Positions 30,827-32,263 of a stretch of DNA of 32,290 bases are shown piece after piece. The position numbers and the translations under genes are program-made. The notes under the pieces were generated by a model that was not told where the DNA came from, searched no databases, and saw nothing but the letters and a program-made list of their open reading frames with translations. The stretch lies in IMG/VR virus record IMGVR_UViG_3300028800_001532; one strand, given 5' to 3'. Source of the stretch: a virus. Position 1 is the first letter of the stretch. The number at the start of each line of letters is the position of its first letter.

Positions 30827-31054
30827 ATGGCCTCACACAAACCGATGCGGATCGCAGGGCGTATCCGCAGTGTCCTTGGACGTGACTTCACCTGGTGTCT
30901 CAATCTCGTCAGAGACACGGGTGAATTTGCCGCCTGTATTGCTAGGACCTTCAACACACCGATCGAATCGGTGCTCATCGGGATCGGCCGACAGGCCATC
31001 CGCGCAGAGCAGCTCGATGCGGCGGCCCGGTCTGAGGAAGCCAGCGCTGCTTAG
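30827..31054 (+). CDS. small hypothetical protein (75 aa)
   Basis: GGTGTA at about 30808-30813 is followed by acaaggagtctga and then ATG, and the spacer contains the Shine-Dalgarno site AAGGAG. Confidence 0.45.
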   Translation: MASHKPMRIAGRIRSVLGRDFTWCLNLVRDTGEFAACIARTFNTPIESVLIGIGRQAIRAEQLDAAARSEEASAA

Positions 31055-31713
31055 CTCTTGGGACCGTCGCCGGATGCGGCGGCCATCATCACCTCTGAGA
31101 CGTAGCCGTCAACAGAGCGCTTCTGGAGCCCCTGTCCAACCTCCCACCGGGTGAAACGCCGGATGGTGAGCTTCTCGCCGAACTTGGCACTGACCTCGGC
31201 TCGGAGCTGCTCGACGGTCTTGCCCTGAACGTGGATGGACTCCTGGTCCAAGAGGCAGACCTCCTGATACCACTTGTTCAGCTTGCCCGGGAGGATCTTG
31301 GCGAACGACGCCTCGGGCTTGCCGTCCTTGCGGAGCTGCTCCGTGAAGATCTCCTCCTGCCTGGCGAGGACCTCCTGGGTGACCTCCTGGCGTGAGACGA
31401 ACTGCGCGTTCATCCCCGCGATCTGCATCGCGATATCGTCGCAGAAGGCACGGAACTCGGGCGTCCTGGCCACGAAGTCGGTCTCGCAGTTGACCTCTAC
31501 GAGGACGGCGAGCTTGCTGCCCGGGTGAATGTACGCGTGCACGAGGCCGTCTGTTGCGACACGGGCGTCCGACACGTTGCGGACAACGCCCCGCTTCTGG
31601 AGAAGCTCTAGAGCCTTTGCCACGTCACCCTGGGTCTCGTCCAGGGCGCTCTTGCATTGGGCCATGGGGGCGCCGGAGCGCTCCCGCACTTCACGGATCT
31701 GATCGAGGGACAT
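31051..31713 (-). CDS. tsf: translation elongation factor Ts (short form, 220 aa)
   Basis: The N-terminal UBA-like region VRERSGAPMAQCKSALDETQGDVAKALELL and the stretch GSKLAVLVEVNCETDFVART both align closely to bacterial EF-Ts (ELRERTGAGMMDCKKAL... and ...ILEVNCQTDFVAK). Confidence 0.8.
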   Translation of the reverse strand: MSLDQIREVRERSGAPMAQCKSALDETQGDVAKALELLQKRGVVRNVSDARVATDGLVHAYIHPGSKLAVLVEVNCETDFVARTPEFRAFCDDIAMQIAGMNAQFVSRQEVTQEVLARQEEIFTEQLRKDGKPEASFAKILPGKLNKWYQEVCLLDQESIHVQGKTVEQLRAEVSAKFGEKLTIRRFTRWEVGQGLQKRSVDGYVSEVMMAAASGDGPKS

Positions 31714-31736
31714 GGTCCCTCTCTACACCGGTCCGT

Positions 31737-32144
31737 CTACTCGTCCTCGTATTTCAGGTGCTCCTCGGGACTGTGCCCGAAGCCCATCGGGGACCCGATG
31801 CCGCAGTCGTCACATGTGTAGGTCTTGCACCCGAAGCAGAAGTCGTCCGAGGTGCAGTCCGCGCCACAGTTGAAGCAGACTATCCTCTTCTCGCCCGCTT
31901 CCTTCAACAGGATGCAGTCGTTGCAGAGCCGGTGCATCCTGTTGTAGCCGAAGGTGATGGGGCGCCATCCGGAGGCTCCGCGCTCGATGACCTTCTTGCA
32001 GTCCGTGCAGGCCTTGTCGTTCTTGCGGACCTTGGCTGTGTGCCAGAGGTTGACCCCGAAGGTAGGGTGTTCGAGGCGGACGAGTCCCTCGTTGAGCCGG
32101 CGGTCGAATCTGTAAGGCACCATCACATGGCTCCTGGTATCCAC
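31737..32144 (-). CDS. Cys-rich multi-CxxC zinc-finger protein (about 128-135 aa)
   Basis: The sequence carries CTDCKK, CNDC, CFNCGADC, CFGCKTYTCDDCG. The track start GTG at 32144 may instead be ATG at 32124, which overlaps the upstream stop. Confidence 0.5.
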   Translation of the reverse strand: MDTRSHVMVPYRFDRRLNEGLVRLEHPTFGVNLWHTAKVRKNDKACTDCKKVIERGASGWRPITFGYNRMHRLCNDCILLKEAGEKRIVCFNCGADCTSDDFCFGCKTYTCDDCGIGSPMGFGHSPEEHLKYEDE

Positions 32145-32263
32145 GGACCCCAGTCGGAGGCGTCTTGCTCAGGATACACCGGCGGGGCAGCCTCCGTCAC
32201 CGGGTGGGTGTTCTCCCAGACGATGATGGCAATCAGCACGCACGTCCAGAAGACCACGGCCAT
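32125..32263 (-). CDS. possible small membrane protein (46 aa)
   Basis: MAVVFWTCVLIAIIVWENT looks like one TM helix. The stop overlaps the start of the Cys-rich gene (ATGTGATG). Confidence 0.3.

Follow-up and report, generated by a model that had tools for sequence, protein, structure and literature searches.

Among the genes of huge phages are those for ‘elongation factors G, Tu and Ts’, whose proposed role is to maintain translation efficiency in infection (Al-Shayeb et al. 2020, Nature 578:425, PMC7162821). Here we describe a gene for elongation factor Ts (EF-Ts), the guanine-nucleotide exchange factor of EF-Tu, that lies on a 32,290-nt stretch of viral DNA, IMG/VR record IMGVR_UViG_3300028800_001532 (the whole of which is called the window below). 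The first-pass annotation of this DNA had stated that very large phages encode translation factors; this is correct, and EF-Ts is specifically named among them (Al-Shayeb et al. 2020, PMC7162821). Phage-encoded EF-Ts has been known since 2020, and the window gene, tsf, is most likely a further example. Like the huge-phage EF-Ts of that study, it is of cellular type, is found in a very large, phage-like metagenomic genome rich in orphan open reading frames (ORFans), is detached from rpsB, and is related to but distinct from host copies. Unlike other huge-phage EF-Ts, it comes from a lineage of its own, rich in GC (63%) and with affinity to the Myxococcota. From sequence comparisons and a structural model, we consider it likely that the gene is viral cargo whose product would carry out nucleotide exchange on host EF-Tu and sustain elongation during infection.

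Thirty-three further IMG/VR viral contigs, of up to 536 kb, contain EF-Ts in the same situation. The nearest of the IMG/VR proteins is only 56% identical to the window EF-Ts, and the two have no neighbouring genes in common. GenBank phage records yielded 13 EF-Ts matches, most of which resemble host contamination or short fragments; the only plausible true case is the 595-kb uncultured phage LR756511.1, with 26% identity to the window protein. Phage Q-beta likewise depends on EF-Ts, but this RNA phage recruits the EF-Ts of its host into its replicase. The DNA element described here encodes its own EF-Ts, and no RNA-dependent RNA polymerase is in evidence.

The first-pass annotation had called the product a clear short-form EF-Ts, and family searches, structural comparison and conserved residues bear this out. 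The 220-residue protein passes the cut-offs of both Pfam EF_TS (PF00889; 6e-36, 124.4 bits against a cut-off of 27) and the NCBIfam equivalog TIGR00116 tsf (166.8 bits against 104.05). Residues 3–193 align end to end with EF-Ts of Thermus thermophilus, a 196-residue protein (chain C of the EF-Tu-EF-Ts complex 1AIP; E=1e-39), indicating that the window protein is the short form. An AlphaFold model built from 12 input sequences (mean predicted local distance difference test score 78) contains helices at residues 3–13, 17–26 and 31–40, followed by a beta/alpha core. The N-terminus of the model matches UBA domains and is followed by the core (dimerisation) domain, the architecture of the EF-Ts family. 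The modelled core superimposes on Thermus EF-Ts 1TFE with a template-modelling score of 0.90 and a root-mean-square deviation of 1.9 Å, and all of the top 20 significant matches in a PDB fold search with the model are EF-Ts. The Thermus protein (1AIP, 1TFE; 36–40% identity) likewise combines a UBA-like three-helix domain with a single core and the TDFV motif, and neither protein has the duplicated subdomain of Escherichia coli EF-Ts. Unlike the Thermus protein, the window EF-Ts has a C-terminal extension of ~27 residues, modelled as a helix with low confidence, and the cysteine of the Thermus RRFCRFELG motif is replaced by threonine.

The NCETDFV block is retained in the window protein (N75-C-E-T-D79-F80-V81) and is invariant both in the alignment and in 75 cellular homologs. 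In the E. coli complex 1EFU, Asp80 and Phe81 of TDFV (E. coli numbering) disrupt the Mg2+/nucleotide site of EF-Tu. Across 75 cellular short-form EF-Ts, 45 columns are conserved at 95% or more, and the window protein keeps 39 of them. By sequence, the gene encodes a complete short-form EF-Ts with the EF-Tu-disrupting TDFV motif, and its residue conservation predicts that the protein would bind EF-Tu and promote GDP/GTP exchange.

The setting of the gene separates it from cellular tsf. The exact protein is also encoded on a 218,019-bp metagenome contig (ENA ERZ27245399 k141_1829800) and on two short contigs. On k141_1829800 the window occupies positions 11368–43657; it has 3 mismatches in the 10,861 bases compared (window 1–10861) and may come from another assembly of the same virus. 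The readable stretch of this 218-kb contig comprises 51.4 kb, namely the window and 10 kb past each of its ends. No ribosomal protein S2 was found in these 51.4 kb (tblastn, E<=10). The first-pass annotation had noted that tsf does not adjoin the S2 gene, and the 10 kb read beyond position 32290, where it had suggested looking, likewise hold no detectable rpsB. The canonical cellular arrangement, with rpsB directly upstream of tsf on the same strand, is absent from the window locus. The cellular control comprised 80 tsf loci from many phyla, the closest matches among GTDB species-representative genomes. One of them has only 84 nt of upstream sequence and could not be assessed; in all of the other 79, rpsB directly precedes tsf on the same strand. 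The viral control consisted of 37 IMG/VR contigs with an EF-Ts relative (up to 536 kb, GC 30–57%), 34 of which had enough upstream sequence, and S2 lies upstream in only one of these 34. Another three divergent short EF-Ts (P0059, P0049 and P0039) also occur without rpsB in phage-like contexts, where their neighbours include HNH and LAGLIDADG endonucleases, RtcB, thymidine kinase, dCMP deaminase and runs of orphan genes. The non-canonical tsf context is real and diagnostic, and missing rpsB linkage is a near-perfect flag of viral tsf copies.

A second copy of the gene is present on a 569,965-bp JGI contig (Ga0480561_0000005, locus L007; the sister contig below), where the encoded EF-Ts is 63% identical to the window protein. 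The gene caller shortened this copy; its full-length frame begins MSLEQIREVRERSGAP, like that of the window gene. The Nei-Gojobori ratio of nonsynonymous to synonymous substitution rates (dN/dS) between the two copies is 0.46, compared with 0.31–0.35 for three neighbouring genes and 0.17 for a small convergent gene. These values indicate purifying selection on EF-Ts, weaker than expected for a core translation factor.

A phylogeny against host and phage homologs, of the kind proposed in the first-pass annotation, was constructed by neighbour-joining from 89 short-form EF-Ts. The window protein, P0002, P0003 and the copy from the 570-kb contig (P0022) form one clade with 99% bootstrap support, related to the cellular Myxococcota clade yet distinct from it. 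This clade sits on a long branch, apart from the tight cellular Myxococcota group. The nearest cellular EF-Ts (55–58% identity) come from Myxococcales, Polyangiales and ‘Deltaproteobacteria’ metagenome-assembled genomes (MAGs), and those of other phyla reach at most ~49%. Myxococcota tsf products, exemplified by P0012 (L009) and a Myxococcales MAG (L239), fall in the same length class as the window protein and share its C-terminal tail. Unlike the window gene, Myxococcota tsf lies directly downstream of rpsB, a canonical arrangement that we checked for P0012, and does not carry the start-proximal motif described below. The window EF-Ts was probably derived from a host that is a member of, or close to, the Myxococcota.

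The gene content of the 51.4 kb points to a virus of bacteria. The median product of the 64 complete called genes is 114 residues long, and 26 of these genes encode 100 residues or fewer. Only 10 of 67 listed genes have Pfam matches, and overlaps of 1–4 nt between genes are frequent. GGAG, GAGG or AGGA occurs 4–20 nt upstream of 31 of the 64 starts, against a background of 17%; such Shine-Dalgarno-like motifs indicate that the translation signals are bacterial. Eight proteins match PHROG families. A 721-residue protein (18752–20917) has homologs in jumbo phages XacN1 and Vibrio phage D479, and a 63% identical homolog on a 529-kb IMG/VR contig. Genes for a DnaJ-domain kinase, a 318-residue protein and a 315-residue protein occur in the same order, with 42–44% identity, on LR745208.1, a curated 485-kb ‘uncultured phage’. 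Also common to LR745208.1 are a 503-residue protein (47%), a 289-residue protein (40%) and, weakly, an ADP-ribosylglycohydrolase (26%). A search of the whole LR745208.1 record identified a large terminase (phrog_2, 1e-25) and a portal protein (phrog_16240, 1e-33). Relatives of the window have been classed as viral independently, since a 363-kb part of the sister contig and the 529-kb contig are both in IMG/VR. The earlier proposal that tsf is carried by a mobile or viral genome is upheld by the density of small orphan genes, the PHROG matches and the gene order common to the terminase- and portal-encoding LR745208.1; by these sequence criteria the element is most likely a very large bacteriophage.

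A short motif links the EF-Ts gene to the rest of this element. The start codon is preceded by GGTGTAGAGAGGGACCATG, which has the form GGTGTA-N10-ATG and includes a GAGGG Shine-Dalgarno-like run. The same motif precedes EF-Ts on the sister contig (GGTGTAGAGAGGGCGCATG). The window contains 24 copies of GGTGTA, where 5.7 are expected, and GGTGTA-N9-11-ATG occurs 10 times against 0.23 expected, a count reached in none of 100 shuffles. The consensus of 18 instances with N10 spacing is C-GGTGTA-N9-C-ATG-G. The motif is also present in loci L004, L006 and L007, and it is as dense on the sister contig and the 529-kb IMG/VR contig as in the window. In LR745208.1 it is rare, and the tsf loci of cellular Myxococcota do not contain it. 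A second, 30-nt element, TTGATTC-N13-GTTGTAGTAC-CGGC-ATG, resembles a -35/-10 promoter and ends ~7 nt before the ATG; four copies lie around EF-Ts, on both sides of it, and two lie inside the IMG/VR viral region. Near EF-Ts, neither a terminator nor a sigma-70 promoter could be identified convincingly. The fixed distance of GGTGTA to the start codon and the conserved C-A at -1/+1 suggest that the motif is a lineage-specific promoter, with transcription that would start at or next to the ATG and yield leaderless or near-leaderless mRNAs. Whatever its mechanism, the GGTGTA signal ties EF-Ts to the element's own expression programme.

The immediate neighbours of tsf are listed with these elements in Table 1. 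The range given in the first-pass annotation, 31051–32263, spans three genes rather than one. Its description of the flanks stands as regards a multi-CxxC gene on one side and a convergent open reading frame (ORF) on the other, and fails as regards the ‘ORFan’ label, since the convergent gene has an 80-residue counterpart on the sister contig (60% identity). This conservation argues that the gene is a real lineage-specific gene and not noise; it has no family match in Pfam or NCBIfam. The CxxC gene is possibly co-transcribed with EF-Ts. Its product has no match in Pfam, PHROG or NCBIfam, and a homolog with 53–58% identity (dN/dS 0.35) lies upstream of EF-Ts on the sister contig. The small ORF that follows overlaps the start of the CxxC gene by 1 nt and, if begun at an ATG, would encode 46 residues.

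Table 1. Positions of the EF-Ts gene, neighbouring genes and sequence elements (window coordinates unless a locus is named)
Feature	Position	Strand	Remarks
tsf-like gene, intact short-form EF-Ts, 220 aa	31051..31713	-	uninterrupted ATG-to-TAA ORF, 220 codons
Start-proximal motif GGTGTAGAGAGGGACCATG (GGTGTA-N10-ATG)	31711..31729	-	before EF-Ts; putative element-specific promoter or leaderless-start signal
GGTGTA motif, example sites of 10	1090-1108 (-), 6779-6796 (+), 8902-8920 (-), 21495-21513 (-), 21709-21727 (+), 31711-31729 (-)	as given	
TTGATTC-N13 element	~25850-25900; L001 3597-3626, 5055-5084, 5139-5168; L007 3664-3693, 4545-4574	+ (window copy)	
CxxC protein, 128 aa	31737..32123	-	five CxxC motifs; directly upstream of EF-Ts, same strand
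Small ORF, 56 aa in full contig	32123..32290	-	start 3 nt past window end; gene call, L001 9421-9591
Convergent gene, 75 aa	30827..31054	+	gene call; 4-nt overlap with EF-Ts stop codon
Coiled-coil protein, 344 aa	29687..30721	-	phrog_29668 at 7e-12; AAGGAG-N6-ATG start
ADP-ribosylglycohydrolase-family protein	28480..29427	+	Pfam PF03747, 1e-23; phrog_6572, 1e-16
DnaJ-domain Ser/Thr protein kinase	1136-2212	+	
318-aa protein	2224-3180	+	phrog_2971 (also in cluster-C-type mycobacteriophages)
315-aa protein	5256-6203	+	

The block around EF-Ts is conserved on the sister contig, where the order is a DUF6094 helicase-like giant protein, a 503-residue protein, a 389-residue protein, the CxxC protein, EF-Ts, the small convergent gene, the coiled-coil protein and the ADP-ribosylglycohydrolase. 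Identities across the block range from 53 to 93% (88% for the 389-residue protein, 63% for EF-Ts and 93% for a SpoU-type methyltransferase further on). The coiled-coil protein is 74% identical to its homolog in the same position, and the ADP-ribosylglycohydrolase is 69–75% identical, with a further, weak homolog in the huge phage LR745208.1. The 503-residue protein (58% identity to its sister-contig homolog, 47% to that of LR745208.1) is encoded at L001 5902–7413, ~2–3.5 kb past the window end. By eye, its N-terminus contains a GHKL-type ATPase-like signature, ELVQNAWDTGA; it has no PHROG match and no Pfam family on record.

Several other genes were noted along the contig. A second translation-related gene of the element encodes a Pth2-like peptidyl-tRNA hydrolase of archaeal/eukaryotic type (L004 11843–12394, ~1.5–2 kb before the window start); it matches Pfam PTH2 and phrog_1866, is under the NCBIfam cut-off, and adjoins a 2OG-Fe(II) oxygenase gene. 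In the window a histone-deacetylase-family gene (3199–4050) is inserted within the trio of kinase, 318-residue and 315-residue genes. A cluster for nucleotide and RNA metabolism (9265–12268, plus strand) encodes Ham1/ITPase, HisG, a weakly matching SAICAR-synthetase-like protein and a SpoU-class RNA methyltransferase. The HisG ATP phosphoribosyltransferase scores above the TIGR00070 cut-off, has an N-terminal P-loop-like extension and is unusual phage cargo. An 862-residue major-vault-protein-like gene (22123–24711, plus strand) matches the Pfam MVP shoulder (6e-28), Vault_3 (2e-10) and the vault MVP in the PDB (1e-13); bacterial and gut-phage homologs of MVP have been described in preprints only. 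The stretch from 12300 to 17900 (plus strand) has raised GC skew and contains only small orphan ORFs (~70–130 residues) without family matches. This stretch, the 721-residue gene and the MVP-like gene are absent from the syntenic stretch of the sister contig; the 12300–17900 segment appears on this account to be a variable accessory region. Notable tandem repeats were not found.

A number of observations weigh against a functional EF-Ts carried by a bacterial virus. Capsid, portal, terminase and tail genes were not found on this contig, ~51 of whose 218 kb were read, or on its two closest relatives. LR745208.1 lacks EF-Ts, from which it follows that EF-Ts is not core to the wider group. The readable 51.4 kb contain no tRNA genes and no other elongation factors, and neither the window nor the related loci contain tRNA or tmRNA genes. 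In IMG/VR the sister contig is represented by UViG_3300044796_000662, which covers 362,937 of its 569,965 bp and stops 1.7 kb short of EF-Ts. Host assignment is by protein similarity alone. A dN/dS of 0.46 is high for a translation factor, and all four clade members carry other residues in four columns that are at least 95% conserved in cellular EF-Ts (G16P, A44V/T, K48S and G69A), three of these replacements lying in the N-terminal domain and linker. Together, the dN/dS value and the clade-wide replacements make an altered or partly relaxed EF-Ts function possible.

The search for virion genes was made by several routes. No structural gene emerged when the larger ORFs of the window, of both 10-kb flanks and of the related loci L006 and L366 were searched against PHROG and Pfam, and T4 structural proteins had no phmmer match in LR745208. 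The 218-, 529- and 570-kb contigs were not among the top 120 of 1,185 relatives of the LR745208 terminase, were not matched by a back-translated terminase motif searched over IMG/VR, and were not among the best 80 of 252 JGI metagenome matches to a terminase profile. Sampling of the sister viral genome with the promoter-like 30-mer recovered one new 13.8-kb region, which contains no structural genes.

The lack of a virion gene on this lineage's contigs is one reason to consider instead a giant plasmid, or another extrachromosomal element, from a GC-rich bacterium, with EF-Ts as translation-related cargo. Some large putative plasmids do carry analogous suites of translation genes (PMC7162821), and the IMG/VR viral boundary leaves out the EF-Ts side of the sister contig. 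Such an element is nevertheless unlikely, although it survives better than the other alternatives: 363 kb of the sister contig and the 529-kb relative are listed as viral, the gene order is common to a huge phage that encodes terminase and portal, and there are cultured jumbo-phage homologs and several PHROG matches. Relaxase, partition and conjugation domains did not turn up in the Pfam results, which did not include a systematic search for them.

The replacements shared by the clade raise a different possibility, in which the protein would be a diverged EF-Tu binder directed at EF-Tu-based host defences, serving for instance as a decoy for, or a shield from, toxins that modify or depend on EF-Tu, or would be the partner in a phage-specific complex. 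The replacements G16P, A44V/T and K48S affect the N-terminal domain and linker, the gene is under relatively relaxed or altered selection, and an ADP-ribosylglycohydrolase is among the neighbours. There are precedents for EF-Tu and EF-Ts in other roles, as cofactors of a CdiA tRNase toxin (PMC9071432) and of Q-beta replicase (PDB 3MMP and 3AGP, both among the matches). We regard this role as rather improbable because the catalytic TDFV block and 39 of the 45 near-invariant columns are intact, as fits ordinary exchange; no defence or anti-defence gene was identified adjoining EF-Ts, and no functional link between the neighbours and EF-Tu was found. A similarly doubtful idea, again drawn from sequence features, is that EF-Ts of this lineage has been re-tuned into a specialised EF-Tu partner, for protection of EF-Tu or preference for phage messages, under a start-adjacent GGTGTA-N10-ATG expression programme with possibly leaderless mRNAs.

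The position of the IMG/VR boundary would also suit a host chromosome, or a chromosomal island beside an integrated giant prophage, with EF-Ts as a second cellular tsf copy. IMG/VR cuts the 570-kb contig to the 363-kb viral region, and the protein is a normal cellular type closest to Myxococcota. The boundary lies at L007 position 8230, the exact end of the gene for the 389/390-residue protein, which corresponds to ~280 bp past the window end (~32570). The 40 kb outside it are as dense in ORFans as the inside; their genes are tiny, none is a housekeeping gene, and they include homologs of huge- and jumbo-phage genes (the kinase/318/315 trio and the 721-residue protein). Two sequence motifs, GGTGTA and TTGATTC-N13, occur on both sides, and the EF-Ts clade is on a long branch apart from the tight cellular Myxococcota group. 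A chromosomal location is accordingly very improbable. Because the outside DNA is equally orphan-rich, holds genes of LR745208.1 and jumbo phages and shares both signals with the inside, the boundary is probably an artefact of low marker density or automated provirus trimming. A eukaryotic or giant-virus origin, prompted by the MVP, DnaJ-kinase, histone-deacetylase and PTH2 matches, was rejected because of the operon-style overlaps of 1–4 nt, the Shine-Dalgarno-like motifs, the bacterial EF-Ts and the relatives, which are bacterial phages.

We therefore favour a functional, host-derived EF-Ts that would be carried as stable cargo by GC-rich, ORFan-dense bacterial viruses of ~0.2–0.57 Mb. The gene would probably be transcribed from a phage promoter at or next to its ATG. 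During infection the phage EF-Ts would bind host EF-Tu-GDP and speed the release of GDP. The supply of EF-Tu-GTP-aminoacyl-tRNA would thereby be raised or safeguarded, so that elongation could keep pace with phage protein synthesis under host shutdown or limiting EF-Ts. The bias of host translation suggested in the first-pass annotation is likewise an inference.

With phage-encoded EF-Ts reported in 2020, this locus opens no new question. What it adds is new in a modest way: a GC-rich lineage of Myxococcota affinity, conservation in two genomes, the rpsB-linkage statistic and the start-proximal motif. It provides a well-documented case of a probable huge phage with its own predicted EF-Tu exchange factor, one that is conserved and under selection and that appears to have a traceable, Myxococcota-like origin. 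The protein is small and easily expressed, and so suited to testing phage takeover of translation. The finding lends support to the idea of a takeover of late translation steps by very large phages.

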